The translations under genes and the position numbers were made by a program. From UHGV virus genome UHGV-0289908: 64,000 bases of DNA, one strand, 5' to 3'. The stretch comes from a virus. This document shows, piece after piece, positions 3,480 to 33,662 of this stretch. How positions within the stretch are numbered: the first letter of the stretch is position 1; every line of letters starts with the position of its first letter. The notes beneath the pieces were generated by a model. The model saw only the letters and a list, made by a program, of their open reading frames with translations. It searched no databases and was not told where the DNA came from.

Positions 3480-3484
3480 AGGGA

Positions 3485-4512: not shown

Positions 4513-4525
4513 GGGGGATGATGGG

Positions 4526-5137: not shown

Positions 5138-5173
5138 AACATATTGACAAGATATGACGGAACATGATATAAT
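5126..5173 (+). promoter_or_regulatory. Promoter module (UP element, TTGACA 5144-5149, 18-bp spacer, TGaTATAAT 5165-5173). The UP element overlaps the 3' end of the upstream ORF.
   Basis: Consensus match. Confidence 0.55.
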
Positions 5174-5204
5174 TCTGTCATGCTAATAAGAGAGGAAGAT
5201 AGAA

Positions 5205-5423: not shown

Positions 5424-5424
5424 C

Positions 5425-6956: not shown

Positions 6957-6969
6957 GAGGAGATAGAAG

Positions 6970-7281: not shown

Positions 7282-7291
7282 GAGGAATAAT

Positions 7292-7606
7292 ATGAATGAA
7301 TCAATGGAGTTGAAAGTTGGAGACATTGTTGAATTCGTGAGTCGAGCAGATGATTCATGTGGAGAATGTGGAGGAGATAGAGGTAAGGTTGTCCGTGTTA
7401 GATATGATGGAATATGGGTATATCATCTAACAATGCCATGCGACACCGCATGGTCAATATATGACAGAGATGACTTTATAGCGGAGTGTCTTATCTCAGA
7501 AGGGGTCATTACAAATCACGAAGCACGTCAAAATCGTTTTTGGTGGTATCCTTTTAGTGCAGTAACAAAAGTGGCAAATGCTTCAAAAATTGAATGGATA
7601 GAATAG
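7292..7606 (+). CDS. Tandem paralogue 3 of 5 (C-terminal IEWIE), Cys-rich
   Basis: 'CGECGG', 'RFWWYP'. Confidence 0.6.
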   Translation: MNESMELKVGDIVEFVSRADDSCGECGGDRGKVVRVRYDGIWVYHLTMPCDTAWSIYDRDDFIAECLISEGVITNHEARQNRFWWYPFSAVTKVANASKIEWIE

Positions 7607-7616
7607 GAGGGGTAAC

Positions 7617-7928
7617 ATGTCATTTTCTAGCTTTAATCGAGGAGAACGAGTAAGAATAATCGCCCCCCAAAGAACGAAAGCCTTAGCCGTGGGGGATAAG
7701 GGATATATCATCAGAAATTCCAGTTTTGGACACTACGATGAAGTGGCGGTTATGTTTGACAAAGAATTCAGAGAGGGATTAAATTTCGTTGCGGGAGAAA
7801 ACAGTGATGAAGAGATAATCCGTCGTGGACTTGTGTATGCAGGTGAACATGTACAGAATCGTTCAGCATGGGTTCGAGTAGAAGACCTTGAACTCTGCTC
7901 AGACCACGAGATTCAGTGGATAGAATAG
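7617..7928 (+). CDS. Tandem paralogue 4 of 5 (C-terminal IQWIE)
   Basis: 'DEVAVMFDKEF'. Confidence 0.6.
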   Translation: MSFSSFNRGERVRIIAPQRTKALAVGDKGYIIRNSSFGHYDEVAVMFDKEFREGLNFVAGENSDEEIIRRGLVYAGEHVQNRSAWVRVEDLELCSDHEIQWIE

Positions 7929-7938
7929 GAGGTGCTAT

Positions 7939-8271
7939 ATGGTTGACAGTATGAATGGATTGTGCATAGGTGATAGAGTTATCATTTCTGGCAGTGGAGG
8001 AGATTTTGGAACTCCTTGTTCATGGATGGGGGAACGTGGAAGAATAATCTTTTTCGACACCGATGACGACTCTGCGGTGGTATTTTTTGACTCAAATATT
8101 GGACGCTGGGGATTGGTTGAATTAGATGAACCATACACCAGAGTCGAGCGTATTCAAGGTGGGCTAACAATGGGATGGTTTACTGAAAACGAACTAAAAA
8201 AAGAAAGATGTTCTTGGATAAGTGTTGAAAACCTATCACTGTTCTGCACACCAATTGAATGGATTGACTAA
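7939..8271 (+). CDS. Tandem paralogue 5 of 5 (C-terminal IEWID)
   Basis: N-terminal 'GDRVIISGSGG' beta-strand-like motif shared with the others. Confidence 0.55.
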   Translation: MVDSMNGLCIGDRVIISGSGGDFGTPCSWMGERGRIIFFDTDDDSAVVFFDSNIGRWGLVELDEPYTRVERIQGGLTMGWFTENELKKERCSWISVENLSLFCTPIEWID

Positions 8272-11252: not shown

Positions 11253-11723
11253 ATGATTAAAGTAGTATATGGAGATTTAATGCAAGCAACAGAGGATATT
11301 ATTGTTCATCAAGTAAACTGTAAAGGGGTTATGGGCTCTGGAGTAGCGAAACAAATCAAGGCTAATTTCCCCGAAGTTTTTAATGAGTACCGAGGACATG
11401 CTCAATCTCATGATAGTGATGAGCTATTGGGGACTGCCCAGTTCGTGTTCTCACCAAGTAAGAACAAGATTGTTGCTAACGTATTTGGACAAGACTCTTT
11501 TGGAGCAAGTCGTCGTCGCACATTTGAATCTGCTCTAATTTGGGGATTAATCAAGGTAAAAGAGTTTGCAGAGGACAATAATATGTCGGTTGCCATGCCG
11601 TACAATATTGGCTGTGCATTAGGTGGAGGAGATTGGGATACTGTATACGAAGGTATTCAAGCGGTATTCAGCGACTTTGACCGAGATGTTGTACTTTATC
11701 AATTTGAAGAACCTTCTTGCTAA
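11253..11723 (+). CDS. Macro-domain (ADP-ribose-binding / ADP-ribosyl-hydrolase-like) protein
   Basis: 'IIVHQVNCKGVMGSGVAKQI' matches the macro-domain N..N....G.G(V/I)A motif. 'GCALGGGDW' is the distal glycine loop. Start overlaps the sigma-factor stop. Confidence 0.65.
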   Translation: MIKVVYGDLMQATEDIIVHQVNCKGVMGSGVAKQIKANFPEVFNEYRGHAQSHDSDELLGTAQFVFSPSKNKIVANVFGQDSFGASRRRTFESALIWGLIKVKEFAEDNNMSVAMPYNIGCALGGGDWDTVYEGIQAVFSDFDRDVVLYQFEEPSC

Positions 11724-14326: not shown

Positions 14327-14941
14327 ATGAACATTAAAACATTAGCAGTTGCAGGGATTGAGCAGTCCATGAAAGGGATGCGTAATCCGATGGATTCTTG
14401 GCACTTGCAGGATACCACAGGAGACATAATTGGAGAAAAGGATTTGAACCTCGCTCAACGTTTATTAAAAGCAGGAGCAGAGCACGCAAAATTCATGAGA
14501 CAAATTCATGTGTGGGTTGACATGGACATGCCACGTTATTGGTGGAGTGAGTTTGATACATACCACTATAATACGAAAAACAGTTGTTCAACAATGCACA
14601 AACTGTTAAACAAGAAAACACCAATTCGTTTAGAGCAGTTTTATTATGAACCACAAGATGAAGAATTCATGATGATTATTGTTGATAAGTTAAATGAAAT
14701 TCGAGAAGAATGGAATAACGCTCAAGGAACAAGCGATAAAAACTTGTGTCTTAAAAGAGCAAAACAGTTGTTACCAGAAGGGTTTTTACAGTTGCGAACG
14801 GTATCAACCAATTATGCTGAAATTCGCAATATTTACTTCCAACGTAAAAACCACCGTTTAAAAGAAGAATGGCAAGATACTTTTGTGGAATGGGTTAAGA
14901 CCTTACCATATGCGGAAGAGTTGATTATGTATGAAGGATAA
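14327..14941 (+). CDS. Hypothetical protein, possibly nucleotide-metabolism related given its position beside folD. Not assignable by eye.
   Basis: 204 aa. Preceded by a GGAGA/TCTCC-type hairpin in the leader. Confidence 0.4.
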   Translation: MNIKTLAVAGIEQSMKGMRNPMDSWHLQDTTGDIIGEKDLNLAQRLLKAGAEHAKFMRQIHVWVDMDMPRYWWSEFDTYHYNTKNSCSTMHKLLNKKTPIRLEQFYYEPQDEEFMMIIVDKLNEIREEWNNAQGTSDKNLCLKRAKQLLPEGFLQLRTVSTNYAEIRNIYFQRKNHRLKEEWQDTFVEWVKTLPYAEELIMYEG

Positions 14942-15572
14942 TCCGAGAAAGTGTTCTGTAGAAGGATGTGAAACACAGGCAAAACATAATTGCTTTGATG
15001 GCAAGCCATACTGTGGAAAACACCTTCATCACATGTATAGACATGGAGAAATAAGAACAATACATCGAAGAAGTCCAAATAACTATACAACTAATGGCAA
15101 CATTACTACAGTTGATTTATATGGGAATCGTGGGGAATTAAAAGGGCAAGCCATCATCGACACAGAAGACAAAGAAATTGTATCAAAACATAAATGGGGC
15201 TACACTCCCGATGGATATGTGAAAAGTTCAGCACAAAGACTACTATTGCACCGATTAGTGATGAATTGCACGGACAAGTATTTACAGGTAGACCATATTA
15301 ACGGAAATCCATTAGACAATCGCAAGGCGAATTTGCGATTAGTCACAAATCAACAAAATCAGTTTAATTCAAAAAACACTGGTTCGGGAGACAACTCTCG
15401 AAAAGGAGTTTCATTTCGCAAAGACCGAAACAAATGGAGAGCTTATATCACGCTAAACGGAAAACAAATAGCCCTCGGTTCGTTTGACACAGAAGCGGAA
15501 GCAATAGAGGCTAGAATCCAAGCAGAAGAAAAGTACTATCGAGAATACAGGAGAGGGGAATATTATGAGTAA
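14931..15572 (+). CDS. HNH homing endonuclease with a C-terminal AP2-like DNA-binding domain
   Basis: N-terminal Zn knuckle 'CSVEGCETQAKHNCFDGKPYCGKH'. 'VDHINGNPLDNRKANLRLVTNQQN' HNH core. 'GVSFRKDRNKWRAYITLNGKQIALGSFDTEAEAIEAR' AP2. Confidence 0.7.
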   Translation: MKDNPRKCSVEGCETQAKHNCFDGKPYCGKHLHHMYRHGEIRTIHRRSPNNYTTNGNITTVDLYGNRGELKGQAIIDTEDKEIVSKHKWGYTPDGYVKSSAQRLLLHRLVMNCTDKYLQVDHINGNPLDNRKANLRLVTNQQNQFNSKNTGSGDNSRKGVSFRKDRNKWRAYITLNGKQIALGSFDTEAEAIEARIQAEEKYYREYRRGEYYE

Positions 15573-16892: not shown

Positions 16893-17492
16893 ATGAAAAC
16901 ATTACTTACTAACTTAACATTACAAGAAGCAACAGAAGCGATTCAAGGAACTACAAATACTATGTACCGTGGGGCTTGGACAGCAGAGTATTCACCTGCG
17001 GAAGTAGCAATCGGGTTCGATGAATATGGGGAACTATACGACGTAGCAGATGATGTGGAAGCAACATTATCATTAGAAGACATCATGGCTAAAGATTGGT
17101 GTGTATTAGCTGACACAGACGCAGATATCGAGAAATGGGAGGAAGGCATGCGTCATGTATTAGAAGGTTTCCGATTAATGGATGGGACACAGGTAGATGA
17201 ATTCCGATTCATGTTCTGGAAGCAGTTGACAATGTTATTGTCGACCTATTTCGGAGAAGCTACATCAGCACACTACATTAAGACAGGGGAACTTGTTCAC
17301 AATAGAAAATGTGATTGTCCAGATTGTCGTATTGGGCGATTCCAAAAGAATCCAGAGGAAGAATTAAAGAAAACATTAGACCGTTTAGCTAACATGGTTG
17401 GAACGGTGAATCCAGAAGACAACTTTATTGAGTTTCCAGACGGTGGGAAAGAAATGAATGATTTCTTAAAGTTCTTATTCGGAGACAAGTAA
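16893..17492 (+). CDS. Hypothetical acidic protein
   Basis: ORF. RBS 'TAGGAGAGATAATATG'. Confidence 0.4.
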   Translation: MKTLLTNLTLQEATEAIQGTTNTMYRGAWTAEYSPAEVAIGFDEYGELYDVADDVEATLSLEDIMAKDWCVLADTDADIEKWEEGMRHVLEGFRLMDGTQVDEFRFMFWKQLTMLLSTYFGEATSAHYIKTGELVHNRKCDCPDCRIGRFQKNPEEELKKTLDRLANMVGTVNPEDNFIEFPDGGKEMNDFLKFLFGDK

Positions 17493-17500
17493 TTGAGTAT

Positions 17501-17522
17501 GCACGAGCCTTCGGGTTCGTGC
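17501..17522 (+). other. Stable hairpin GCACGAGCC-ttcg-GGTTCGTGC with no U-tract
   Basis: UUCG-type tetraloop. Possible terminator or RNA stability element. Confidence 0.3.
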
Positions 17523-17537
17523 TAAAAATAAAAACTG

Positions 17538-17587
17538 CTAAAATATTATAAAATGCTATTGACAATATCTTACAGATATGTTAATAT
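17538..17587 (+). promoter_or_regulatory. Promoter module (TTGACA 17559-17564, 17-bp spacer, TGtTAATAT)
   Basis: Consensus with a slightly degenerate -10. Confidence 0.5.
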
Positions 17588-17631
17588 ACAGGAGTCGAAT
17601 ACGACAGAAATTTGTCAAAGGAGAGATGAAC

Positions 17632-18321
17632 ATGGCAACACAAAAGAACAAACGCAAGTCTTGGACTGCAACAATCAAACGTTGGTTTGGGATGAAAGCA
17701 GAAGCAGCTAATGACGCAATGGACGGAATGGTGGATTTAGAAGTCCAATTAAAACGCAAGAAACGTGAATTATTAGAACGACGAGATGAAATCCGCAACG
17801 GAGATAACATGAGTCAAATCTTAGGTTTAAAAGCTCAGTTAGAGAACGACCTAATCGCAGAGCGTCGCAAGTTCGAACAGTCGAAGTACATTGAAACAAT
17901 TCGTCGCTTACGTGACACTGGTCAAACAGAACAGGCTAAACGATTATTAATCGAGAAGAACCAAAAAGAGCAAAAGATTGAAACTCTTGTTCAACAGTTG
18001 GCAGAAGCAACAAATGCAGAAACTGAAATCTTACGTCAGTTAGACATCTTAGACCGCAACATTGCTCAAGCTACGGCAGAGTTAGACGAGTTCCAACGAC
18101 GCAATCAAATGGCACAACAAACAGAAGCTATCTACGACGTATTAAACAGTGTTACTGACATCAACACAGGATATGACGCAGACGGAATTCATGAAGCTAT
18201 TGCAGAGCGTGAAAGAGCAGCGGCAGGACGACGCACGTTATATAATAATGCTAATGTTGCAAACAATGCTCGCTATGACGCAGAGATGTCTTCTCTTGAT
18301 GACGAATTAGCAAACTTATAA
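17632..18321 (+). CDS. Coiled-coil protein, function unknown
   Basis: Long heptad-like charged helices. RBS 'CAAAGGAGAGATGAACATG'. Confidence 0.4.
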   Translation: MATQKNKRKSWTATIKRWFGMKAEAANDAMDGMVDLEVQLKRKKRELLERRDEIRNGDNMSQILGLKAQLENDLIAERRKFEQSKYIETIRRLRDTGQTEQAKRLLIEKNQKEQKIETLVQQLAEATNAETEILRQLDILDRNIAQATAELDEFQRRNQMAQQTEAIYDVLNSVTDINTGYDADGIHEAIAERERAAAGRRTLYNNANVANNARYDAEMSSLDDELANL

Positions 18322-18366
18322 TACTTAACATACTATTAAGAATACATACTCAAGGAGAGATTAACT

Positions 18367-18909
18367 ATGGCAATTAACTTAGAAAAAGGAAATGGAATTT
18401 GTTTAGATAAAGGATTATCACGTGTAGCATTCACAGTAAGTTGGGATACAAATGAAGATGTGGACATCTCAGCCATGTTATTAGAAAATGGTCGTGGAAA
18501 ACGAGATACAGACTTTGTATTCTTCAACAACTTACAACATGAAAGTGGAGCAGTAAAGCACAGTGGAGACATTCGTAACGGAGCTCATGCACTTGGTGTA
18601 GATGATGAAGTAATTGACATCGACTTAAACAAAGTGCCTGCAAACTTCACCGAGATTGTCTTAGTAGCAGATATCTACAATGGAGCTTCTAAAGGATTGC
18701 ACTTCGGTAAGATTGCAAACTCAACAGCTAAGATTGTTGACTTAGACACTAATCGAGTATTGGCTTCATTTAAGTTGGACAAAGACTTAATCGGTCAAAC
18801 AACTTGTGAGTTAGCCCGTGTGGTTCGTGACAATGGAGCATGGAAGTTTGAGAACTTATCTCATCCAGTAATGTCTCTAACAGGAGCATTGACTTCAAGA
18901 GGTTTTTAG
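18367..18909 (+). CDS. TerD-domain protein (tellurium-resistance / Ca2+-binding stress protein family)
   Basis: 'MAINLEKG...ISLDKGL...' start, 'DVDISAMLL', 'GDIRNGA..GVDDEVIDIDL', 'GASKGLHFGKI'. About 180 aa is typical for TerD. Confidence 0.7.
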   Translation: MAINLEKGNGICLDKGLSRVAFTVSWDTNEDVDISAMLLENGRGKRDTDFVFFNNLQHESGAVKHSGDIRNGAHALGVDDEVIDIDLNKVPANFTEIVLVADIYNGASKGLHFGKIANSTAKIVDLDTNRVLASFKLDKDLIGQTTCELARVVRDNGAWKFENLSHPVMSLTGALTSRGF

Positions 18910-19002
18910 TTGAGTAAAGGGCACTAATGCCACAGCACTTTACTGAGACAGAGTGGCAGTAAGGGGTCGTAATTGACCCCCTCTCTTAAAAGGAGGATGG
19001 AT

Positions 19003-19266
19003 ATGTTCTTTAAGAAGAAAAGCTACATTGACAAGGTTCGAGAGAAAACCCGACAAGGAAAGTTAAGAAGTGCAAGAACCGCAATATATGAGGTGCAGTG
19101 TTCAATAGAAAGAGCTTGTGAAGAAGGTAAAAGCAGTACAAAGGTGACCTATTACGGGGGCGACCAAGAGAGGGTTGAGTTTATCTCGCAATATCTAAGC
19201 GAACAAGGGTTTAAAACCTCCATTGACAAGGGAAGTACTTATGCAACCCTAAAAATTAGTTGGTAA
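19003..19266 (+). CDS. Hypothetical protein
   Basis: RBS 'AAAAGGAGGATGGATATG'. Confidence 0.35.
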   Translation: MFFKKKSYIDKVREKTRQGKLRSARTAIYEVQCSIERACEEGKSSTKVTYYGGDQERVEFISQYLSEQGFKTSIDKGSTYATLKISW

Positions 19267-19278
19267 ACTTATACTTTT

Positions 19279-19806
19279 ATGCACATTGAAAGGAAGATGA
19301 AGATGAAAGAAACAACAATTATTAGCGGATTCCCTGGGGTTGGGAAAACAGAATTTTTTAAAGACCAAAAGTATCATGGGAGAGTATGTTTGGATAGTGA
19401 TAGTAGTGAGTTTAGTTGGGTAAAAGATGAAAATGGAAATAATACAAAAGAAAGAAACCCAGAGTTTCCAAATAATTATATAAAACATATTAAAGAGAAC
19501 ATCGGTAAAGTTGATATTATATTTGTGAGTAGTCATGACGTTGTTAGAAAAGCGTTAGAAGAAGCTGATGTTAGATATGTATTGGTTTACCCAGAATTAA
19601 CAGCAAAAGATGAATATGTTAGAAGATACCGACAACGAGGTAACAATGATGGTTTTATTAAATTTATTAGTGATAATTGGGATAGTTTTATAAACGATAT
19701 GAAGAATGAAACTTTTCCATACAAAAAGGAATTGAAAGAATGGCAATATCTATCATCAATGGGAGTTGTTTTTAGTTGTGAGGTTGCAGGGTATTGTGAA
19801 TGTTAA
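19279..19806 (+). CDS. P-loop NTPase / putative nucleotide or polynucleotide kinase
   Basis: Walker A 'GFPGVGKT'. About 170 aa. Noticeably AT-rich, with AGA/AGG arginine codons. Confidence 0.45.
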   Translation: MHIERKMKMKETTIISGFPGVGKTEFFKDQKYHGRVCLDSDSSEFSWVKDENGNNTKERNPEFPNNYIKHIKENIGKVDIIFVSSHDVVRKALEEADVRYVLVYPELTAKDEYVRRYRQRGNNDGFIKFISDNWDSFINDMKNETFPYKKELKEWQYLSSMGVVFSCEVAGYCEC

Positions 19807-19852
19807 AAGTGAATAAAATTTAATTTTTAAATACATTTTGAGGAGATGATTT

Positions 19853-19996
19853 ATGAGATACTTGAAAAACTTCTTGGTTAATTTGTTTACGATAATCGGT
19901 GTTTGGATAATTCTAATCAACTGGTTTGGTTTTAAAGTCCTATTAACCATCCCAGAGTTTTGGTGGGATAAGTTTAAAAATAAATTTATGAGGTGA
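19853..19996 (+). CDS. Small membrane protein
   Basis: Hand-translated 'MRYLKNFLVNLFTIIGVWIILINWFGF...'. Confidence 0.25.
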   Translation: MRYLKNFLVNLFTIIGVWIILINWFGFKVLLTIPEFWWDKFKNKFMR

Positions 19997-20001
19997 TAAA
20001 A

Positions 20002-20151
20002 GTGGAAGAATTTGATTTAGTTACTTGCGAACTTTGTTTTTGGAATGATGTTGACTCTGACGTTCAGTGCGAGAAGTGTGGAAGATATTTTTGTGAGGAC
20101 TGCGGTTCTTATGGTGAGTGCATTTGCAACAATTGTAAAGATGGTAAATAA
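20002..20151 (+). CDS. Small double-CxxC zinc-ribbon protein (paralogue a)
   Basis: 'CELCFW...CEKCGRYFCEDCGSYGECICNNC'. Confidence 0.3.
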   Translation: MEEFDLVTCELCFWNDVDSDVQCEKCGRYFCEDCGSYGECICNNCKDGK

Positions 20152-20184
20152 AATTAAATTTTTATACAGAAATGAGGTTAAAGA

Positions 20185-20364
20185 ATGAACGAACGTATAT
20201 ATAGTGGTGAAGTTTGTGACTTTTGTGCGAATTGTTTAACAATACTTAATGAGGGTGATGAGTATATAAGATGTGAAGTTTGTGGGGACTTATATTGTGC
20301 AGACTGTATTAGAAAAAACGAGATTGGCGAGTATGTTTGTATTCGCTGTGTTGAAGAAGAATAA
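20185..20364 (+). CDS. Small double-CxxC zinc-ribbon protein (paralogue b)
   Basis: 'CDFCANC...CEVCGDLYCADC...CIRC', same arrangement as the previous ORF. Confidence 0.3.
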   Translation: MNERIYSGEVCDFCANCLTILNEGDEYIRCEVCGDLYCADCIRKNEIGEYVCIRCVEEE

Positions 20365-20585
20365 GTAAATAAAATCAGAAGTTAACAGACATTTAAGGAG
20401 TGGTAAAATGGATTTTAATAAGTGTCATATTGAACTACTTGTAAGAGCATTAGACCATTATAAGTGGTATCAAGTGATTTCAGATGAAGAAAAAGAAGAG
20501 TGTGTCAGAATAAAACGCATTCTTCAAAAGTTATATAAACAAATTGATGGCAAACAAAATTAGAATTTTAAAGGAGACGATATTA

Positions 20586-21287
20586 ATGGCTATTAACTTA
20601 ACTAAAAATCAAGGAATTAACTTAACAAAAGATGTTGAAGGGGTTGAAGAAGCATTAAAGACTATTAAATTAGGATGTGGATGGCAAGCGTCTGATTCGG
20701 GCTATGTAACTATTACACGAACAGTAACGAAAACTCGTCGCACTGGAGGATTCCTTGGATTTGGTGGAACGATTGAAACTTACGAAGAGCCAGCAACTGA
20801 GGAAGTGTATGTAGGAAACATTGATGTAGACGCTTCGGTATTTGCCTTCAAGAATGGAACATTAGTTGGAGAGTGTACATTCCGCAATCAAACAATGAAG
20901 AATCGAGTAGGTAAAACTGTTGCTAAATCAAGCGGAGATGACACAGTGGGGTCTCGTGGTAAGAACAAGAGCGACAATGAAACAGTTACCATTAACCTTG
21001 AGAATGCTGTTGGATTTGCAGATACATTATACTTAGCATTAAACATCTTCCAAGCGAAGAGCAAGGGTCAGCACTTCAACATGATTAATAATTCTTATGT
21101 GCGAGTGTATGATGACAAAGGTATTGAGTTGGCATACTTCAACTTAGCAGAAGACTATGACAAGAAAACAGGAATTGTGGTCGGTAAATTAGTTGAACGA
21201 AATGGGAAGTTTGAGTTTGTTGCATTAGGTGACGGAGTGATTGTTAGCGACTTACGTGACTTAGCTTCAAAATCAAAACGATACTAA
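20586..21287 (+). CDS. TerD-domain protein, second copy
   Basis: Starts 'MAINLTKNQGINLTK' like the first TerD. RBS 'AAAGGAGACGATATTAATG'. The ORF-track start at 20544 is probably too far upstream. Confidence 0.6.
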   Translation: MAINLTKNQGINLTKDVEGVEEALKTIKLGCGWQASDSGYVTITRTVTKTRRTGGFLGFGGTIETYEEPATEEVYVGNIDVDASVFAFKNGTLVGECTFRNQTMKNRVGKTVAKSSGDDTVGSRGKNKSDNETVTINLENAVGFADTLYLALNIFQAKSKGQHFNMINNSYVRVYDDKGIELAYFNLAEDYDKKTGIVVGKLVERNGKFEFVALGDGVIVSDLRDLASKSKRY

Positions 21288-21373
21288 TACATATGAGGGG
21301 ATGACCCCCTCAACCTACTAAATGAGATACTTAGAATAAATACTATACTTAGAACAAAGGAGCAACTATACTT

Positions 21374-23944
21374 ATGAAGAATATTAATGGATTAACAAAC
21401 GCAGAAGTGGAATCGCAACGCATGCTATTTGGAGATAATAAGATTGCAGAAGCAGAACCAAAGAAGTTTTGGACAGAATGGTTGGCAAACTTTGAAGACC
21501 CAATGTTAAAATTATTAGTGGGAATTACAGTGTTAATGGCGGTAATCGCTGCCTTTGGATTCACAGAATGGTTTGAAGTCATTGGTATCTTAATCTCTGT
21601 GACAATCGTAACACTTATTTCAACAAAGACTGCAATGGTTTCAGATGGAGAATACCGCAAGTTAAAAGAAGAGAACTCTCATGAGACTTGTAAGGTATGC
21701 CGTAATGGACAAATTGAAATCATTGACACTAACGACTTGGTGGTTGGAGACTTTGTTTTAGTTCAATCGGGAGAGAAGATTCATGCAGATGGATTCTTAT
21801 ATGATGGGAACATTAAGGTAGACAACTCAGCGTTAAACGGTGAGTCAGATGAAGTTAAAAAGATTCCAACAGACTTCTATGACTTTGCAAATGGTGAAAT
21901 GACAGACTCTCACATGATGTTACGTGGAGCTTTAGTTGCTGACGGGGAAGGTGTTATGAAAGTAGCCAAGGTTGGAGCAAACACTATGATGGGACGTATG
22001 GCAGAAGAGATGACAGAAGAAGAGGTTGACTCTCCATTAAAAGTTAAGTTAACACACTTAGCAGAGCAAATCTCTAAATTCGGTTATATCGGAGCAGTAG
22101 TTATTGGATTAGCTATCTTAGGTAACTCAATCTTAAGTAACGGGCTACAGTCTTGGTTGGCACAACCATTCGCATTAATGGCTAAAGACGTGTTAAATGC
22201 CTTATTAGTATCAGTAACAATCGTAGTTATGGCAGTACCAGAGGGATTACCTTTAATGATTGCAATTGTATTAATGCAAAACACTTCAAAGATGTTGCAA
22301 CACAATGTATTAGTGCGTAAGGCAGTAGGTATTGAAACAGCGGGGTCATTAAACATCTTATTCTCAGATAAAACAGGAACTATCACTAAAGGTCAGTTAG
22401 AAGTAGTAAACTTCATTGACAAGGACGGAAACCAGTTTGATTCAATCACTGGATTAGACGAAGGTATGCAGAAGTTAGTTGCCACATCATTAAAGATTAA
22501 CAACTCGGCTATGATTGTAGACGGTGAAATCACAGGTGGGAACATGACAGACCGCGCTTTATTACAATATGTTAAAGATATTGAGCATGAAGATTTAAAG
22601 GTAGTAAAAGTGGAAACATTCAACTCTGCTAAGAAGTTCATGGCAACTCAATGTGAGACAGCAATGGGTCGTACATTAACGCTATACAAAGGTGCAGTTG
22701 AACGAGTATTAGACAAATGTATCAATATTACAGATGAAGAACGCAACAAAATCAACACTATTGTTGACGAAATGGCTAACAATGCAATCCGTGTACTTGC
22801 TATCAGTTATGCTCATGGAGAGTTAGTAGCAGGTGAATTATCACCAGAGATGAGCTTATTAGGGGTAATTGGTATCCGTGACGATGTTCGTCCAGAAGCT
22901 AAAACAGCCATTGCAGAAGTACAAAATGCAGGTGTTCAAGTAGTCATGATTACTGGAGACCGCAAAGAAACAGCAGTAGCAATCGCAAAAGACGCAGGAT
23001 TAATTACCAAAGACACAGATGTGGTATTAACATCAAGTGAATTACAGGACTTATCAGATGAAGAAGTAAAAGCAATCATTCCAAACTTAAAGGTAGTTGC
23101 TCGTGCATTGCCAACAGACAAGTCACGTATGGTTCGTTTATCACAGGAGCTAGGACTTGTAGCAGGGATGACAGGTGACGGAACTAACGACAGTCCTGCC
23201 TTAAAACGAGCAGACGTAGGGTTTGCCATGGGGTCTGGAACAGATGTAGCGAAAGAAGCAGGAGACATCATCATCTTAGATGACAACTTCAAGTCAATCG
23301 CAGACTCGGTGTTATATGGTCGTACTATCTATAACAATATCTTAAAGTTTATCAAGTTCCAATTAACAATCAACGTAGTAGCAGTATTTATTTGTGCAGT
23401 GTGCCCATTCTTCGGTATCCAAGAGCCATTAAACATTATCCAGTTGCTAATCCTCAATTTAGTAATGGACAGCTTAGGGGCTATGGCATTAGGTGGAGAA
23501 CCTGCATTAAAAGAGTACATGAATGAGAAGCCAAAGTCTCGTACACAATCAATCGTAGATAAAGCTATGATGATTCAAGTAGGTGCTATGGGAGCATTCA
23601 TGGCAGTATTAAGTTTATTATTCTTATTTGTTCCTATGTTCAAAGACATGTTTGGTCAAGCACATTTAACAGGATACTTCGCACTATTCATGTTGATGTC
23701 TGTATTCAATGGATTCAATGTGCGTAGCATGGATTCAAATGTATTCAAGGGATTAGATGAAAACAAAACATTCGCTAAGGTTATGGTTGCTATCGTTGCC
23801 ATCTTAGTAGTGTTAACACTCATTGGAGGAGAATTCTTATCAGTAACCCCAATGAACTTAGTGCAATGGGTTGTGGTGTCAGTAATGGCAGTAACAGTAA
23901 TTCCATTCGGAAGTTTCTTAAAAGGATTAATTTCGTCAAAATAA
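21374..23944 (+). CDS. P-type cation-transporting ATPase (type IIA, Ca2+-ATPase-like)
   Basis: 'DKTGTIT' phosphorylation site, 'MITGDRKETA', 'GDGTNDSPALKRADVGFAMG', an N-terminal cation-ATPase-N segment and about 8-10 TM helices. Confidence 0.85.
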   Translation: MKNINGLTNAEVESQRMLFGDNKIAEAEPKKFWTEWLANFEDPMLKLLVGITVLMAVIAAFGFTEWFEVIGILISVTIVTLISTKTAMVSDGEYRKLKEENSHETCKVCRNGQIEIIDTNDLVVGDFVLVQSGEKIHADGFLYDGNIKVDNSALNGESDEVKKIPTDFYDFANGEMTDSHMMLRGALVADGEGVMKVAKVGANTMMGRMAEEMTEEEVDSPLKVKLTHLAEQISKFGYIGAVVIGLAILGNSILSNGLQSWLAQPFALMAKDVLNALLVSVTIVVMAVPEGLPLMIAIVLMQNTSKMLQHNVLVRKAVGIETAGSLNILFSDKTGTITKGQLEVVNFIDKDGNQFDSITGLDEGMQKLVATSLKINNSAMIVDGEITGGNMTDRALLQYVKDIEHEDLKVVKVETFNSAKKFMATQCETAMGRTLTLYKGAVERVLDKCINITDEERNKINTIVDEMANNAIRVLAISYAHGELVAGELSPEMSLLGVIGIRDDVRPEAKTAIAEVQNAGVQVVMITGDRKETAVAIAKDAGLITKDTDVVLTSSELQDLSDEEVKAIIPNLKVVARALPTDKSRMVRLSQELGLVAGMTGDGTNDSPALKRADVGFAMGSGTDVAKEAGDIIILDDNFKSIADSVLYGRTIYNNILKFIKFQLTINVVAVFICAVCPFFGIQEPLNIIQLLILNLVMDSLGAMALGGEPALKEYMNEKPKSRTQSIVDKAMMIQVGAMGAFMAVLSLLFLFVPMFKDMFGQAHLTGYFALFMLMSVFNGFNVRSMDSNVFKGLDENKTFAKVMVAIVAILVVLTLIGGEFLSVTPMNLVQWVVVSVMAVTVIPFGSFLKGLISSK

Positions 23945-23985
23945 TATAAAATAGATTGACAACATATGACAATCTATGATATAGT
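23941..23985 (+). promoter_or_regulatory. Promoter module (TTGACA 23956-23961, 18-bp spacer, TGaTATAGT)
   Basis: Consensus. Confidence 0.55.
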
Positions 23986-24097
23986 TTAAATGCACCTAGG
24001 AAATAGTTTTTGACAGTCAGTACCTACCATGGTAGGTATTGGCAATCAAGAACTGATTCAAAAAGAGAGAGTGAGTTCTTAATACTTGTTAGGAGAG

Positions 24098-25543
24098 ATG
24101 AACATGAATTATAACCACAGAAGTTTTATTTGGGATTGTGACGCTTACAAGCTAGGACATATGTGCCAGTACCCAAGCGACACAGAATATGTTTACTCAG
24201 TATTACAATTACGCAGTGACCGATACTTCACTGAGACACCGATTGTTGGGTTACAATACCTAATTAAAGAGTACTTAATGCAACCAATTTTAAAAGGTGA
24301 TGTCGAAGGGCTAATTGCAGAAGCAAAAGCAATGGGAATCTATCACCCAGATACTGAAACAAAGTTGATGGCTTTAGTAGACTTAGGATACTTACCATTA
24401 GAGATTAAGGCATTACCAGAGGGTAGTGTTGTGGGAATGCCAAATGCAGTGTGTACAATTCAAAATACCGTTGCAGGATTCCACTGGGTAGTAGGGTTCG
24501 TAGAAACATTATTGTTAAAATGGTGGTCAGCCTTAGCAACAGGAGCTTGTAGCTTAAAGTATCGTCGCATTGTTGATAAGTACTTTGCAGAAACATCAGA
24601 CAACGACTTCTTACGACCATTCGCTGTTCATGATTTTGGTTCACGTGGGGCAATGACTCCAGAGGGAGCAGCTTTTACAGGAATGGCTCACGCATTAAAC
24701 TTCGATGGTTCTGACACAATCGTATCAGCTCCATTAATTCGCAAGTTCTACAATGCAGAAGGAATGGTAATCTGCTCAGTGCCTGCTAGCGAACACTCTG
24801 TAATGTGTTCATTTGGACGAGAAGATGAAATTAAAGCATTTGAGAACATGTTAGATATTTACCCTACAGGGATTGTTTCAATCGTTTCAGATACATATAA
24901 TTGGTACAATGTTATGGATAACATGACGCTACAACTAAAAGACCGCATTATGGCTCGTGATGGTAAAGTGGTATTTCGACCAGACAGTGGTAATCCATAT
25001 CACATCATTTGTGGCGAGTACACTGATAAGACATTGAGAAAGTATTGTGAAGAAAGCTGTCAAACTCATGGCGGAATCCATATGTTAGATAAAATATTTG
25101 GTCACACAGTCAACTCAAAAGGATACAAAGTATTGGATTCACATGTAGGACTAATCTACGGGGATGGAATGTATTTAGAACGTTTCGAGAAGACGTTAGA
25201 AACATTAAAAGACCTAGGATATAGTGCGGAAAACTTAGTAATTGGGGTAGGTGGAATCTTACGCAATCACACTCGAGATACTTTAGGAGCGGCATTCAAA
25301 GCGACTTGCGTGTGTCGTGATGGCAAATGGATTCCTATTATGAAAGACCCTATCACTGACCAAGGGAAGAAATCATATCAAGGCTTTGTATCCGTCATCA
25401 AAGAAGATGGACAATATAAAACGGTCGAAGGTGGACATCCACAAGACTTATTACAAACAGTGTTTAAGGATGGACAATTAGTAAAAGACTTCACTTGGCA
25501 GGAAGTTAAAGACCGATACAATTCAGAGTTAGGAGACCGATAA
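24098..25543 (+). CDS. nadV: Nicotinamide phosphoribosyltransferase family protein (NAMPT/NadV-like; candidate Namat of the phage NAD+ reconstitution pathway 1)
   Basis: Blocks 'LPLEIKALPEG', 'HDFGSRG', 'NFDGSDT', 'PASEHSV', 'VSDTYN', 'RPDSGNP', 'NSKGYKVL', 'IYGDG', 'DLLQTVFKDGQL' align one-for-one with NAMPT signature blocks. Confidence 0.85.
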   Translation: MNMNYNHRSFIWDCDAYKLGHMCQYPSDTEYVYSVLQLRSDRYFTETPIVGLQYLIKEYLMQPILKGDVEGLIAEAKAMGIYHPDTETKLMALVDLGYLPLEIKALPEGSVVGMPNAVCTIQNTVAGFHWVVGFVETLLLKWWSALATGACSLKYRRIVDKYFAETSDNDFLRPFAVHDFGSRGAMTPEGAAFTGMAHALNFDGSDTIVSAPLIRKFYNAEGMVICSVPASEHSVMCSFGREDEIKAFENMLDIYPTGIVSIVSDTYNWYNVMDNMTLQLKDRIMARDGKVVFRPDSGNPYHIICGEYTDKTLRKYCEESCQTHGGIHMLDKIFGHTVNSKGYKVLDSHVGLIYGDGMYLERFEKTLETLKDLGYSAENLVIGVGGILRNHTRDTLGAAFKATCVCRDGKWIPIMKDPITDQGKKSYQGFVSVIKEDGQYKTVEGGHPQDLLQTVFKDGQLVKDFTWQEVKDRYNSELGDR

Positions 25544-25544
25544 G

Positions 25545-26390
25545 ATGAACCGACAGGATGTAAAACGATTAACAGATGATTTTCGTAGTAATATTTATGT
25601 CAAAACTGTCCATGGCATGACAGTGGTTGATTTAGACCAGTGGGGAGCAGGAGAGTATCGAGTGACCTATGATATTTGTGAAAAGTATGGGAAATACATT
25701 CATTTGTATATTCCATACGCTACAATGAGCACCCTAGAGAAAGCCATTGTGTTTACACGCTTTGCTTATAAGCAAGGGGCAAAACTGCGTACAACAATAG
25801 GGTATGTGGCATATGGACGACAAGAGCGAGAAACTGGATTAGAACCAGAGCTATTCTCTGTAGTCAAAGACATGATTGCACACCTTCACAACGTGCACAT
25901 CATTGACCCTCATAACATTCCTTCTGCCCTTGAGTATAACACAGAGTGGTTTTCTCCTAAAATCAACGATATGTTGCCAAGGGGGTTCTTAATTGTAGCC
26001 CCAGACAAGGGAGCTGACACTCGCAACAAGAAATTAAATCTGCACTCTGACTATGTAATTGAAAAGGTTCGTACAGTAGACGGAGTAAAATCTCGCATTA
26101 TAGAAGATGACACATTCACTGGAGAAGTGGTTAACGACCCTATAGATTTTATTATCTATGACGACATTTGTGATGGAGGTCGCACTTTTGTGAACGTAGC
26201 AGACATTATGAGAGCCAAGTATCCAAACTGCACCATCACGCTATGTGTTGCACATGCTATCCTGCCTTTTGGGACAGACCATTTAAAAGGTAAGATTAAT
26301 AAGATTATCACGTCAAACACATGTTTCCCTGCGGGAACCTATGATGATGGATTCTTAGATGTTTTAAATGCGTTAAATATCTTCTATTAA
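25545..26390 (+). CDS. Ribose-phosphate pyrophosphokinase (PRPP synthetase) homologue; candidate Adps (ADP-ribose pyrophosphate synthetase)
   Basis: 'LIVAPDKGADTR', 'IIYDDICDGGRT' (PRTase-type nucleotide loop), 'CVAHAILPFG'. Starts 1 nt after the NAMPT-like stop, so likely an operon. Confidence 0.75.
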   Translation: MNRQDVKRLTDDFRSNIYVKTVHGMTVVDLDQWGAGEYRVTYDICEKYGKYIHLYIPYATMSTLEKAIVFTRFAYKQGAKLRTTIGYVAYGRQERETGLEPELFSVVKDMIAHLHNVHIIDPHNIPSALEYNTEWFSPKINDMLPRGFLIVAPDKGADTRNKKLNLHSDYVIEKVRTVDGVKSRIIEDDTFTGEVVNDPIDFIIYDDICDGGRTFVNVADIMRAKYPNCTITLCVAHAILPFGTDHLKGKINKIITSNTCFPAGTYDDGFLDVLNALNIFY

Positions 26391-26397
26391 AAATAGT

Positions 26398-26447
26398 TAA
26401 AATATTATAAAATAATGCTTGACGAATCAAGTCGAGTAATGTAAAAT
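26398..26447 (+). promoter_or_regulatory. Promoter module (TTGACG 26419-26424, 17-bp spacer, TGtAAAAT)
   Basis: Consensus. Drives the structured leader that follows. Confidence 0.5.
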
Positions 26448-26455
26448 AAAAGAGT

Positions 26456-26719
26456 ACCAAGGCGGTTCACTTCGAACCAGTCTTGGGGAAGAGTATCACT
26501 CTCCTCCAATTACCCAATACAAAAACCCTCGTGATACTCTTCCCCAAGACTCTAACCCCCTACTAAGGGTCTTGGCGAACAACATTGATAGTTGTAAATA
26601 AAAATCTAAAAATGAATCTTTCCCCTCTATCAGTGTTGTTCTCCAAGAGTCTTAATAAGATTCTTGATGAGAGATTGAAAAATGAAAGGAGCGATACAAT
26701 GTATACACGGAGTGATTAA
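26456..26719 (+). ncRNA. Roughly 260-nt highly structured leader / candidate ncRNA with nested alternative hairpins built on GTCTTGG / CCAAGAC
   Basis: Perfect 20-bp inverted repeat 26480-26499 / 26531-26550. Overlapping 7-bp pair 26545-26551 / 26569-26575. Further 'CCAAGAGTCTT...GATTCTTG' at about 26643. No ORF over 30 aa. Confidence 0.4.
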
Positions 26720-27283
26720 ATGAGCACTGAGCTAATGAATGAGTATCGAAACAGTCATAAGACTGTAATTACACTGAATGCGGAAACACTTGAATTGTAT
26801 GACAAATATCATGCAAAGCAACATCCATTCAGAAAGAATCAAAGCCTATCATGGCTAGGGAAGACACGAACTGGAGTGTTACCGATGTTAAACAACTTCC
26901 TTAATGTTCGCACTGCAATTCAACGCAGTCAACGTAAGGCAGATGTTGGTGATTATGTTAAATACACACTACAGTCACAGGGTGTTAAACAAACAATGAT
27001 TGAACATTGTATGGTAGTTGTCAAACACTATAATCCAACTAAACGAGAGTTCGACTTAGATGGTGTGAGCGTAAAAAGTTGTTTTGATGCAATGACTGCT
27101 CACGGATTTTGGGTGGATGACAATTACAAAGTAGTAAAACCACTAATCTTCACTGGAGGTTACGACAAAACCAATCCACGAAGTGAGATATGTGTTTACG
27201 AGATTACTGACGAATATCCATACGAATTTGTATTGCAAGTGGTTATGGATGAGTTACAGCAAGAAAGCGACAAAACTTGCTAA
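26720..27283 (+). CDS. Hypothetical protein
   Basis: ORF, 187 aa. Confidence 0.45.
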   Translation: MSTELMNEYRNSHKTVITLNAETLELYDKYHAKQHPFRKNQSLSWLGKTRTGVLPMLNNFLNVRTAIQRSQRKADVGDYVKYTLQSQGVKQTMIEHCMVVVKHYNPTKREFDLDGVSVKSCFDAMTAHGFWVDDNYKVVKPLIFTGGYDKTNPRSEICVYEITDEYPYEFVLQVVMDELQQESDKTC

Positions 27284-28557: not shown

Positions 28558-29196
28558 ATGAGCAAAACAGGAAAGACCTGTTGTGTGTCAGAATGTGACA
28601 AAAAGCACTATGCAAACGGCTATTGTGAAAAACATTATTGGCAAGTCAGAAGACATGGAAAAGTGGTCTTATGTACACGTAGCAAATTTGACAATAATGA
28701 AATCATCTTAAATGGAGATGAAACAGCAACCATTATAACCTATGATAATCATGGGGTTGCCAATGGTAAAACAATAATTTCTGATTCCTGTGTAGAACAG
28801 GTCAGAGACAAAAAGATTGGGAAACATACTTCGAAAGATTATTATTACATCCTAATTGACGGCAACCGCTATGCACTTCACCGCTATCTAATGAATGCTC
28901 ACCTTTCTAGGCATAAAGTGGTGGTTGACCACATTAACCGAAACCCGAGTGATAACCGACTATCAAATTTAAGAATAACAAACCATTCTGGCAACAACTG
29001 TAACAGAGGTTTAATGTCAAATAATTCACTAGGTATTAAAAATATTGGATTAACCAAGTACGGAACATATCGAGTGCAGATTTCTTTGAAAGAGAAGAAG
29101 CACAGTAAAACATTTAAGACACTTGAAGAAGCAATTAAATGGAGAAATGAAACTTTGGTTGCTCTACAAGGAGATTTTGCAAACATACAAGATTAA
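28558..29196 (+). CDS. HNH homing endonuclease with an AP2-like domain (paralogue of 14931..15572)
   Basis: 'CCVSECDKKHYANGYCEKH' Zn knuckle, 'VVDHINRNPSDNRLSNLRITNHSGN', 'GTYRVQISLKEKKHSKTFKTLEEAIKWR'. Confidence 0.7.
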   Translation: MSKTGKTCCVSECDKKHYANGYCEKHYWQVRRHGKVVLCTRSKFDNNEIILNGDETATIITYDNHGVANGKTIISDSCVEQVRDKKIGKHTSKDYYYILIDGNRYALHRYLMNAHLSRHKVVVDHINRNPSDNRLSNLRITNHSGNNCNRGLMSNNSLGIKNIGLTKYGTYRVQISLKEKKHSKTFKTLEEAIKWRNETLVALQGDFANIQD

Positions 29197-32888: not shown

Positions 32889-33662
32889 ATGACAAATAGA
32901 AGTAAAAAACATGAATACATGAACCAGACCTTCACTACAAATGAGGGGTACAATATCAAGATTGTAGATTATGTTAATAGTCGCAATGTGACAGTTGAAT
33001 TTGACAATGGATATAGAACCAATGCTCAACTTGGCTCAATTTTAAAGGGGAGAGTCTCATTCCCCTTTCACCCCTCTGTATATGGGGTAGGTTGCTTGGG
33101 GGTTGGAGAGTATCTGGCAAGTCATAAAAGAAAACACACAAAGACCTACAAAGTATGGCATAGCATGATGGCACGCTGTTATAGCAACTCTTGCTTGGCG
33201 AGCAGGAGCACTTATATGGATTGCTCTGTATACGAGGGATGGCACAATTTCCAAAACTTTGCCAAATGGTATGAAGACAACTATTATGAGATAGAGGGGG
33301 AGCAAATGCACTTGGACAAGGATATTCTTGTAAAGGGCAATAAGGTTTATTCCCCCGACACCTGTGTATTTGTTCCAGAAACCATTAACGGACTGTTTGT
33401 CAAAAGCAATGCCATTAGAGGGGCATTGCCAATAGGTGTCAGCTATCATAAAAAAGACAGGATGTATTACTCTCGATGTAATAATCAGCTATTGGGGAAG
33501 ACTATCACCATTGGGACTTTTACCACCCCCGAGGGTGCGTTCGAAGCCTATAAAGAATACAAAGAGAAGTATATTAAAGAAGTGGCAGAGAAATATAGGG
33601 GCAATATTCCTTCTCATCTGTATGACGCACTAATCCAGTATGAAGTCGAAGTTACTGATTAA
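32889..33662 (+). CDS. Freestanding HNH-family homing endonuclease (paralogue of 2742..3479)
   Basis: 'YKVWHSMMARC...YEGWHNFQNF..W' conserved with the 2742 protein. Lies between the helicase and the primase. Confidence 0.5.
   Translation: MTNRSKKHEYMNQTFTTNEGYNIKIVDYVNSRNVTVEFDNGYRTNAQLGSILKGRVSFPFHPSVYGVGCLGVGEYLASHKRKHTKTYKVWHSMMARCYSNSCLASRSTYMDCSVYEGWHNFQNFAKWYEDNYYEIEGEQMHLDKDILVKGNKVYSPDTCVFVPETINGLFVKSNAIRGALPIGVSYHKKDRMYYSRCNNQLLGKTITIGTFTTPEGAFEAYKEYKEKYIKEVAEKYRGNIPSHLYDALIQYEVEVTD

Follow-up and report, generated by a model that had tools for sequence, protein, structure and literature searches.

NAD+ reconstitution in phages and the locus examined

Depletion of NAD+ is among the commonest anti-phage strategies of bacteria, and NAD+ reconstitution pathway 1 (NARP1) is the main known phage answer to it. 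The pathway was described in 2024 (10.1101/2024.02.11.579819) and structurally dissected in 2026 (PMC12774641, PMC13586617). Its first enzyme, the Prs homologue Adps, uses ADP-ribose (ADPR) together with ATP to form ADPR diphosphate (ADPR-PP), and its second, the Nampt homologue Namat, prefers ADPR-PP and forms NAD+ (10.1101/2024.02.11.579819). NARP1 is known from Bacillus phage SPbetaL1, Escherichia phage Bas63 and Vibrio phage ICP1 (Osterman et al., 10.1101/2024.02.11.579819). The subject of this work is a pair of adjacent genes in a 64,000-nt stretch of the virus genome UHGV-0289908, hereafter the window, which a sequence-only reading had put forward as a candidate NARP1-type operon. The analysis makes it fairly probable that the pair reconstitutes NAD+ as a divergent module of the NARP1 type; its carrier is an SPbeta-like phage or phage-plasmid of gut Firmicutes. 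The two open reading frames (ORFs) span positions 24098-26390 on the + strand, 1 nt apart, where the sequence-only reading had placed them, and all five peptide blocks that it named are present in their translations:

24098-25543, + strand: ORF A, 481 aa from its ATG, a predicted Nampt-fold nicotinamide transferase (Namat-like, clade II)
25545-26390, + strand: ORF B, 281 aa, a predicted divergent diphosphokinase of the Adps type, Prs-like

Published surveys describe how such genes are distributed. Adps forms a clade apart from canonical Prs, a Namat homologue adjoins 97% of Adps-clade genes, and adjacency to a Nampt homologue is part of the operational definition of Adps (10.1101/2024.02.11.579819). 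Purified SpbetaL1 Adps gave no measurable product without ADPR, in a control that consisted of ribose-5-phosphate and ATP according to legend 2D and of phosphoribosyl pyrophosphate (PRPP) and ATP according to the running text (10.1101/2024.02.11.579819). Phages with a Nampt of the KVP40 type, a clade without Adps, carry Nmnat in 94% of cases (NARP2), and no phage carries both pathways; the KVP40 Nampt also makes some NAD+ from ADPR-PP (10.1101/2024.02.11.579819).

The locus resembles NARP1 in several respects. In particular, its Prs-fold and Nampt-fold genes are adjacent and co-oriented, no nicotinamide mononucleotide (NMN) adenylyltransferase (NMNAT) was found nearby, and the carrier is SPbeta-like, as is SPbetaL1. 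Moreover, ORF B has a pyrophosphate (PP) loop of the Bas63 type, the equivalent of Lys185, the acceptor residues and the truncated C-terminus of Adps, while ORF A has the Namat core and an arginine in its SCL. In contrast, ORF A lacks the aromatic SCH clamp of Namat and falls in a separate clade, and ORF B is distant from the known Adps. NARP2, found in Vibrio phage KVP40 and T4-like phages, shares with the locus the use of a phage Nampt-fold enzyme to restore NAD+; however, NARP2 phages have an NMNAT and no Adps-type gene, whereas the Nampt-like gene here has an Adps-type neighbor and the 72 kb read yielded no NMNAT. The kind of system is thus already known. What is new is that the gene order is reversed, that the Adps half is extremely divergent, that relatives have fusions running from Namat to Adps and, above all, that an Adps-type protein has a clamp-less partner, which links phage NARP1 to the nrtR-prs-nadV operons of bacteria.

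ORF B is an Adps-type member of the Prs fold

To judge by its sequence, ORF B is an Adps-side protein, in which each of the features published as sequence criteria of Adps was found. For ICP1 Adps, these features are the acceptor residues Phe18, Arg87, His121, Asp161, Asp212 and Asp213, the catalytic Lys185, a remodelled PP loop from Cys215 to Ser220 that is followed by Phe221, and the loss of the C-terminal alpha11-alpha12 (PMC13586617). The comparison set comprised ICP1 Adps, the Adps of a Bas63-like Felixounavirus, SpbetaL1 Adps (from the authors' Table S1) and E. coli Prs, together with four actinobacterial Prs from Table S1 of Osterman et al.; the ICP1 sequence used agrees with the published numbering at 19 of 19 named residues. 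The equivalent positions in ICP1 Adps and ORF B are F18/W33, R87/R92, H121/H123, D161/D154, K185/K174, D212-D216/D206-D210 and F221/F215, where D206-D210 of ORF B reads D206, D207, I208, C209 and D210 and the catalytic lysine is Lys174. These catalytic and acceptor residues are invariant across a 27-member alignment of the ORF B family. Phe92 of ICP1 has no counterpart in ORF B and is missing too from the other Adps-like proteins compared. At its C-terminus, ORF B ends about 20-25 residues short of E. coli Prs in the alignment, and the canonical alpha11-alpha12 is absent.

The PP loop of ORF B (D206-F215) reads DDICDGGRTF and is identical to that of the Bas63-like Felixounavirus Adps. The loops of the other Adps are DDICDGAASF in ICP1 and DDLSSFGGTF in SpbetaL1. 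The canonical loops of E. coli and the four actinobacterial Prs follow the pattern DD[ML]IDT[GA][GR]T[IL], apart from one divergent paralogue with DDEIATGGSV; the E. coli loop is DDMIDTGGTL, and ORF B has DGGRT rather than the canonical DTGGT ribose-5-phosphate loop. The feature common to Adps-type loops is G-x-[TS]-F where the canonical loop has T-G-G-T-[LI]. The exact string DDICDGG was rejected as an absolute marker of Adps because the verified SpbetaL1 enzyme has DDLSSFGGTF and its Staphylococcus and Listeria phage homologues have DDLTSYGGTF.

The sequence-only reading had assigned the second gene to the Prs family on the blocks VAPDKGA and DDICDGGRT. Both blocks occur in the translation and the assignment stands, with the qualification that the protein is very divergent and falls below every curated threshold. 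For example, ORF B scores 41.8 bits against TIGR01251 (cut-off 113) and 34.4 bits against PRK01259 (cut-off 297), and it matches Pfam Pribosyltran at E 0.005 and phrog_619 at 1.6e-30. The last of these was discarded as a discriminator between Adps and Prs, as it takes in ORF B, verified Adps and E. coli Prs alike. A sequence search of the PDB with ORF B returned nothing at E 0.01, the Adps structures of PMC13586617 evidently not being among the chains compared.

In a neighbor-joining tree (254 columns, 100 bootstraps), the five canonical Prs are separated with 100% support from all Nampt-linked Prs-like proteins, which include the SpbetaL1, ICP1 and Bas63-like Adps and the ORF B family; the method is a distance method, ORF B is a long branch in it and the canonical side holds five sequences. 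Further, a profile of the ORF B family was run with an index-free HMMER search over 1.84 billion cluster representatives and found 8,136 relatives. Among the 134 new proteins in its top 150, which have a median length of 276 aa, 126 carry an Adps-type loop and none a canonical one. The same profile gives 43-95 bits to Adps-like proteins, 52-86 bits to the three verified or Bas63-like Adps, and 8-43 bits to canonical Prs. ORF B is only 27-32% identical to the known Adps and Adps-like proteins.

ORF A keeps the Nampt fold and loses the aromatic clamp

The assignment of the first gene to the NAMPT family, which the sequence-only reading had made, is unambiguous from the family matches. The blocks RPDSGNP, HDFGSRG and NSKGYKVL are all found in the translation, and ORF A matches Pfam NAPRTase (1.4e-37) and NAMPT_N (6.6e-10), NCBIfam PRK09198 (494.8 bits, cut-off 405) and phrog_448 (1.6e-151). 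Two potential discriminators between Namat and Nampt were rejected: every Nampt-like protein matches phrog_448, and the PDB ranking of ORF A places Namat at 299 bits, the NadV of H. ducreyi at 295 and Xcc Nampt at 282.

Namat is defined by the Nampt core together with a 'selectivity clamp', composed of an aromatic SCH and an SCL whose third residue is Arg, Lys or Tyr (Arg40 in SpbetaL1) (PMC12774641). Aligned to SpbetaL1 Namat, ORF A has the core residues D15, Y17, F180, R183, D206, A230, H233, R294, D296, G355, D356, G385, R393 and D394, where H233 is the activating histidine. Arg42 in the SCL of ORF A aligns with the adenine-stacking Arg40 of SpbetaL1 Namat, and the SCL loop is 2 residues shorter than that of SpbetaL1 and 1 residue longer than that of Xcc Nampt. 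By its sequence, ORF A is Nampt-fold and CATALYTICALLY complete, yet no typical Namat.

Several observations weigh against assigning the pair to NARP1, and the chief of them is the state of the clamp. The SCH of ORF A (residues 383-394) is GVGGILRNHTRD, with G385-G-I-L-R-N-H-T-R-D394 as its last part. Compared to the SpbetaL1 SCH, GIGSFTYQYNTRD, the residue Phe392 is deleted, Tyr394 is replaced by Leu388 and Tyr396 by Asn390, which leaves the SCH one residue shorter than in the characterised Namats. The verified Namats of ICP1, a Bas63-like phage and a Manatee Spring podovirus have GS[FY]TYQY.TRD at this place, and ORF A fails the Namat signature GSX-phi-X-phi-X-phi-TRD, which needs aromatics at positions 3 and 7. 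The GVGG at the start of its SCH instead resembles canonical Nampt, for which the human sequence is GSGGGLLQKLTRD and the Xcc sequence GMGGALLQKVDRD. In SpbetaL1 Namat, the double mutations F392G/Y396K and R40A/F392G lowered NAD+ synthesis about 4-fold and about 17-fold, respectively, while NMN synthesis was kept (PMC12774641), and the clamp mutants kept part of their protection in vivo (PMC12774641). Because of these published effects at Phe392 and Tyr396, the loss of the clamp should weaken the use of ADPR-PP by ORF A and spare that of PRPP.

The phylogeny of ORF A points in the same direction. In a neighbor-joining tree of 463 columns, the verified Namats group with H. ducreyi NadV (99%), and the ORF A family (100%) together with a bacterial prs-linked clade (100%) is split from the verified Namats of SpbetaL1, ICP1, the Bas63-like phage and Manatee at 98% (98-99% for the split as a whole). 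The T4-like Nampt of phage Miller, which has the canonical GMGGGLLQEVTRD segment, branches apart. ORF A is 38-41% identical to the verified Namats and 50-52% identical to bacterial genes of the nadV type. Further, the Nampt-like gene comes first at this locus, the reverse of every characterised NARP1. On the side of ORF B, an Adps-like profile built without the ORF B family gives 128 bits to ORF B and 139 to E. coli Prs, and phrog_619 gives 107 and 193 bits, respectively. Because these scores do not favor it over E. coli Prs, the placement of ORF B, a long branch, rests on shared derived characters and on the tree with five canonical Prs. Moreover, the literature searched yielded no paper in which the clamp-less lineage was assayed with ADPR-PP, and the check for NMNAT genes covered 72 of about 154 kb (the contig being 154.6 kb long, with about 82 kb unread).

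That check used several approaches. Pfam and PHROG scans of the ORFs in the window found no NMNAT, NadR, NadM, PnuC or Nudix gene, the precomputed Pfam annotation of the contigs lists no NMNAT-type gene, and a six-frame search for HxGH and Nudix signatures found none in the 64-kb window and 8.2 kb upstream of it. The earlier statement that the 64 kb contain no NMNAT holds at the sensitivity of these scans and motif searches. The same reading had named an NMNAT elsewhere in the genome as a finding that would favor ordinary salvage; within the window and the 8.2 kb upstream, none was seen.

Although the aromatic clamp is lost, the corresponding positions are constrained. In the ORF A lineage, 117 of 121 proteins have H, Y, W or F just before [ST]RD, an Arg stands three positions ahead of that motif (Arg389 in ORF A) in all 121, and 109 of 115 have K or R as the third SCL residue. 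It may be conjectured that the positions of Arg42, Arg389 and His391 form an alternative adenine-stacking arrangement.

The H. ducreyi NadV, a classical 'Nampt' encoded on plasmid pNAD1 (PDB 9KE8), is 56% identical to SpbetaL1 Namat and has the SCH GVGAQTYQRNTRD. Because it branches inside the verified Namat clade, the boundary between Namat and Nampt appears shallow and to depend on very few residues.

The gene pair in relatives and in the bacterial sister clade

The pairing of the two genes is not due to chance, because it recurs in relatives and in fused form. A Nampt-like and a Prs-like gene stand in the same order in a Romboutsia and a Bacilli metagenome-assembled genome, and a 161-kb plasmid of Clostridium perfringens carries the pair under the consecutive accessions XZN14522 and XZN14523. 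Two metagenomic fusion proteins, P0154 (790 aa) and P0155 (779 aa), have a Nampt-like N-terminus and an Adps-type C-terminus with DD[IM]CDGGRTF. Their domain order is opposite to the Adps-then-Namat fusion of phrog_12872 and of Shigella phage Ag3 (Osterman Table S1).

The relatives of ORF A at 50-52% identity are chromosomal genes of Pedobacter, Mucilaginibacter, Sericytochromatia and others, with almost the same SCH; the segment GVGGILRNH[ST]RD is common to this sister group and the ORF A family, nearly letter for letter. The sister clade was scanned with one genome per species, which gave 42 loci, 37 of them with upstream DNA. A short Prs-like gene lies beside the Nampt-like gene in 35 of these 37 loci (immediately upstream in 34 and 3.2 kb upstream in one). 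Where intact, the Prs-like gene encodes about 279 aa and nearly always has an Adps-type loop, mostly DDICDGGATF. An NrtR homologue is adjacent in 27 loci, and a single locus has an HxGH NMNAT-like ORF within 10 kb.

These loci correspond to the nrtR-prs-nadV operons reported by Rodionov et al. 2008 (PMC2330246). Such operons, for example in Shewanella, Acinetobacter and Cytophaga, were read in 2008 as a PRPP synthetase with a Nampt (PMC2330246). The NrtR repressor is released by ADP-ribose, and the dedicated 'Prs' was called functionally unexplained at the time (PMC2330246). Osterman et al. noted NARP1 outside prophages in some bacteria and cited ADPR-dependent regulation (10.1101/2024.02.11.579819). 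In their Table S1, the Namat linkage in Frondihabitans is given as 'No' for the canonical Prs and as 'Yes' for a paralogue with DDICDGGGTF (10.1101/2024.02.11.579819). Because the sister-clade loci pair with Prs-like genes of the Adps type and Table S1 shows this pattern, both Nampt-like lineages are Adps-associated.

The phage family and the bacterial operons are alike in that bacterial nadV is sister to the ORF A family and bacterial prs genes carry the Adps-type loop DDICDGG[AG]TF. They differ in that the bacteria have prs followed by nadV, mostly with NrtR, and the phage family has neither this order nor the regulator; no NrtR homologue was found in the window, in locus L014 or in the distant relative L015. 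Further, the ORF B family is far more divergent than the bacterial partners.

A broader hypothesis follows the same lines and is advanced tentatively, with somewhat less than even confidence: Adps-type enzymes may work with two distinct Nampt-fold lineages, the second of which recognises the adenine of ADPR-PP without the Phe/Tyr clamp. This second lineage, with the SCH GVGGILRN[H/Y/W/F][S/T]RD, would perhaps comprise the present phage family and the nadV genes of the ADPR-derepressed nrtR-prs-nadV operons, a delimitation held with the same reserve. If the clamp-less lineage makes NAD+ from ADPR-PP, the 'selectivity clamp' is too narrow a rule for annotating Namat, and the widespread bacterial 'PRPP synthetase + Nampt' operon is a housekeeping route of ADP-ribose recycling, with phages having exchanged genes from or into it. 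The locus exposes a gap in the annotation rules, since the Adps half passes and the Namat half fails on the clamp, yet dozens of bacteria couple the clamp-less type with Adps-type partners.

Proposed mechanism and alternative explanations

The proposed mechanism of the NARP1-type module has three steps. A host NADase defence would split NAD+ into ADP-ribose and nicotinamide; ORF B would move the beta,gamma-diphosphate of ATP onto the 1'' hydroxyl of ADP-ribose, giving ADPR-PP; and ORF A would displace the diphosphate with nicotinamide. As NAD+ would be made directly from ADPR-PP, no NMN adenylyltransferase would be needed. Both genes would be transcribed from their own promoter and translationally coupled. 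Alignment shows that the fold of each protein is the expected one and that none of the catalytic residues defined by the solved structures of Adps and Namat is missing. The substrates would presumably be ADPR and ADPR-PP rather than ribose-5-phosphate and PRPP, ORF A may read the adenine of ADPR-PP through Arg42, Arg389 and His391 instead of a Phe392/Tyr396 clamp, and the pair would most naturally serve in anti-defence.

The sequence-only reading had held that Adps/Namat cannot be told from Prs/NadV by sequence alone, and it had called for a comparison with characterised members of both. That comparison groups ORF B with Adps, to which its loop, residues, C-terminus, tree position and profile matches assign it, and leaves ORF A ambiguous and apart from the verified Namats. 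The proposal of a NARP1-type operon has fared in the same way: the half concerning ORF B gains support from an Adps-side protein that adjoins a Nampt homologue, and the half concerning ORF A is weakened by a failed clamp signature and a position outside the verified Namat clade.

The alternative that survives best, although it is unlikely, is ordinary nicotinamide salvage: PRPP would come from ORF B, acting as a dedicated synthetase, and a true Nampt, ORF A, would join it to nicotinamide to give NMN. The NMN would then be converted to NAD+ either by a phage NMNAT whose gene lies in the unread portion, as in NARP2, or by the PncC/NadD/NadE, NadR or NadM of the host. ORF A provides the arguments for salvage: it lacks the aromatic clamp that the solved Namat needs for catalysis driven by ADPR-PP and not by PRPP, it lies outside the verified Namat clade, its SCH starts with GVGG like canonical Nampt, and its closest non-phage relatives are the nadV genes once read as partners of a PRPP synthetase. 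That 72 of about 154 kb were checked for NMNAT leaves further room for it. ORF B argues the other way, as its loop is not the canonical DTGGT and is exactly that of Bas63-type Adps, its TIGR01251 score is well below the cut-off, and its split from canonical Prs has full bootstrap support. SpbetaL1 Adps, the one enzyme tested, gave no measurable product in the no-ADPR control, which the legend describes as ribose-5-phosphate with ATP. Moreover, no NMNAT appears in the 72 kb, and the associations with Adps and with Nmnat are mutually exclusive in the published phage statistics. Earlier 'verification' of NadV as a Nampt does not discriminate either, because Namat too makes NMN from PRPP when ADPR-PP is absent.

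A relaxed module with two substrates is more doubtful still. Here ORF B would make ADPR-PP and ORF A would use PRPP and ADPR-PP comparably, so that the phage both recycles ADPR into NAD+ and raises NMN from the PRPP pool of the host. Such an enzyme would fit the partial clamp of ORF A, with Arg42 kept and Phe392 and Tyr396 lost, as well as the NMN synthesis and partial in vivo protection retained by SpbetaL1 clamp mutants and the NAD+ made from ADPR-PP by KVP40 Nampt. Against this, the RN[HYWF] of the SCH is nearly invariant over the 121 clade members, which argues for a specific and not a relaxed function. Finally, it is very improbable that the pair is an accessory of nucleotide metabolism that supplies PRPP or pyridine nucleotides for phage DNA synthesis with no link to defence, as its location in a replication and nucleotide-metabolism region might suggest, since ORF B is no canonical Prs, a pyridine-specific pathway is suggested by the fusions and by the close linkage to a nicotinamide transferase, and the pair has a promoter-like site of its own instead of being read through from its neighbors.

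Layout and expression signals of the gene pair

The NARP1-type reading places both genes under one set of signals, and the DNA around them contains candidates for these:

23956-23985, + strand: promoter-like site of the sigma-70 type (TTGACA, 18 nt, TG-TATAGT; 11/12), the top-scoring site of the region
24004-24055, + strand: long hairpin of the ORF A 5' leader, with the perfect 18-nt palindrome TACCTACCATGGTAGGTA (24021-24038) at its centre

The promoter-like site, a consensus match only, directly follows the stop codon of a P-type ATPase gene and precedes ORF A; it would presumably act as the promoter of the pair. ORF A has alternative starts at a TTG (24086) and an ATG (24104). A single base, 25544, separates the two ORFs, and an AGGAGA lies 9 nt 5' of the ORF B start, within the end of ORF A. 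Because the pair has its own promoter-like site and the AGGAGA of ORF B lies inside ORF A, it resembles a self-contained bicistron with translational coupling.

The leader of ORF A folds with a minimum free energy (MFE) of -36 kcal/mol (z = -4.8), and none of 200 shuffled sequences folded equally well. Its palindrome occurs once in the window, with 0 occurrences expected by chance. An Rfam scan of the whole window and of both structured spacers gave nothing credible, including for the leader hairpin. The hairpin is possibly an operator or an element of RNA processing or attenuation. The distant relative L015 has another palindrome, of different sequence, at the same position, and the occurrence of palindromes at the same place in the window and in L015 suggests a conserved regulatory device.

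A second structured region follows the pair. The 330-nt spacer between ORF B and a RusA-like resolvase gene at 26720-27283 (26391-26719) has an MFE of -96.9 kcal/mol (z = -6.8) and includes a stem of 21 bp at about 26479-26551, another long hairpin at about 26570-26650 and a promoter-like site at 26419-26447. It matches no Rfam family, and it might encode an unannotated small RNA or serve as a processing site or terminator complex.

Carrier element and genomic neighborhood

The gene content indicates that the carrier is an SPbeta-like phage or phage-plasmid of gut Firmicutes. In particular, neighboring genes encode proteins with Pfam YorF and Phage_SPbeta_YorH and a replication set with PolIII-alpha, DnaB-like and RecJ-like members, and the pair is set in a replication and nucleotide-metabolism region with RNR, TK, Gmk, FolD, NrdD and dUTPase genes. 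Metagenome contigs from the human gut, the longest of 154,609 bp, encode a protein identical to ORF A. On contig k127_72480 of ERZ919609, the 8 kb upstream of the window (locus L012) contain genes at 1142-5784 for a pair of tyrosine recombinases, an actin-like segregation protein of the ParM/ALP type and a PemK toxin, which precede the ribonucleotide reductase genes. Because of these genes and the 'plasmid' relative in C. perfringens, a phage-plasmid lifestyle of the SPbeta-like element is suggested.

The element is distant from catalogued phages. A megablast search of its DNA against 50,697 phage records gave no match, the best protein identity to ORF A among these records is 41%, and a scan of IMG/VR with ORF A gave no match. 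The locus would extend NARP1-like pairs to large SPbeta-like phages or phage-plasmids of gut Clostridia, which are absent from these records.

The sequence-only reading had also pointed to a macro-domain gene and to TerD and ATPase genes in the window, all of which are present. The first of them touches on a known variant of the pathway:

11253-11723, + strand: macro-domain protein of 156 aa, a candidate ADPR-1''-phosphate phosphatase (Adpp-like), 12.4 kb upstream of the pair and unlinked to it

In this variant, NARP1-AP, Vibrio phage Gary and its relatives combine Adps and Namat with the macro phosphatase Adpp, a verified ADPR-1''-P phosphatase (10.64898/2026.01.28.702374). The macro protein of the window matches Pfam Macro (3.4e-08) and phrog_335, 'phosphatase' (1.6e-40), and it has weak PDB matches to yeast Poa1p (6LFQ/6LFT, about 2e-5). 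It is a full-length homologue (32% identity, E 3e-17) of gp177 of River4, a Thalassavirus isolated on the same Vibrio harveyi host as Gary, in which gp177 is the macro gene within an Adps-macro-Namat operon; Adpp is the macro protein of this three-gene operon in Gary. The likeness to NARP1-AP ends there, as the macro gene here lies outside the operon. Because of its distance from the pair, and because macro genes are common in phages (genes of this kind occur in 1,322 phage records), its link is circumstantial and it is a possible accessory of the pathway.

The block directly upstream of the pair (16893-23944) is unusual for a phage. It encodes a PspA/IM30-like protein (17578-18321, a weak match), TerD-domain proteins at 18367-18909 and 20547-21287, and an 856-aa P-type cation-transporting ATPase (21374-23944), and it looks like an ion or envelope-stress module.

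Further upstream, the first 62 residues of a 203-aa ORF (4526-5137) have a sub-threshold Pfam match to Tad2-like (Thoeris anti-defence 2), with E 3.5e-4 and 21.5 bits against a cut-off of 25. With a score below the cut-off and no PHROG match, it was not counted as evidence; if real, the ORF would be a second counter-measure against NAD+-linked defence.

Five tandem paralogous ORFs of 99-110 aa lie about 10 nt apart at 6657-8271. They have pairwise identities of 35-40% in pairs, all end in (I/E)QWI(E/K/D), and belong to no Pfam family. The nrdD gene is interrupted, with a GIY-YIG endonuclease ORF (46142-46819) lying between its N-terminal part (44811-45986) and its C-terminal part (47075-47908), as expected for the insertion of an intron or other homing element. 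Further, ORFs for HNH/AP2 endonucleases are distributed across the replication module, at 14931-15572, 28558-29196 and 32889-33662.

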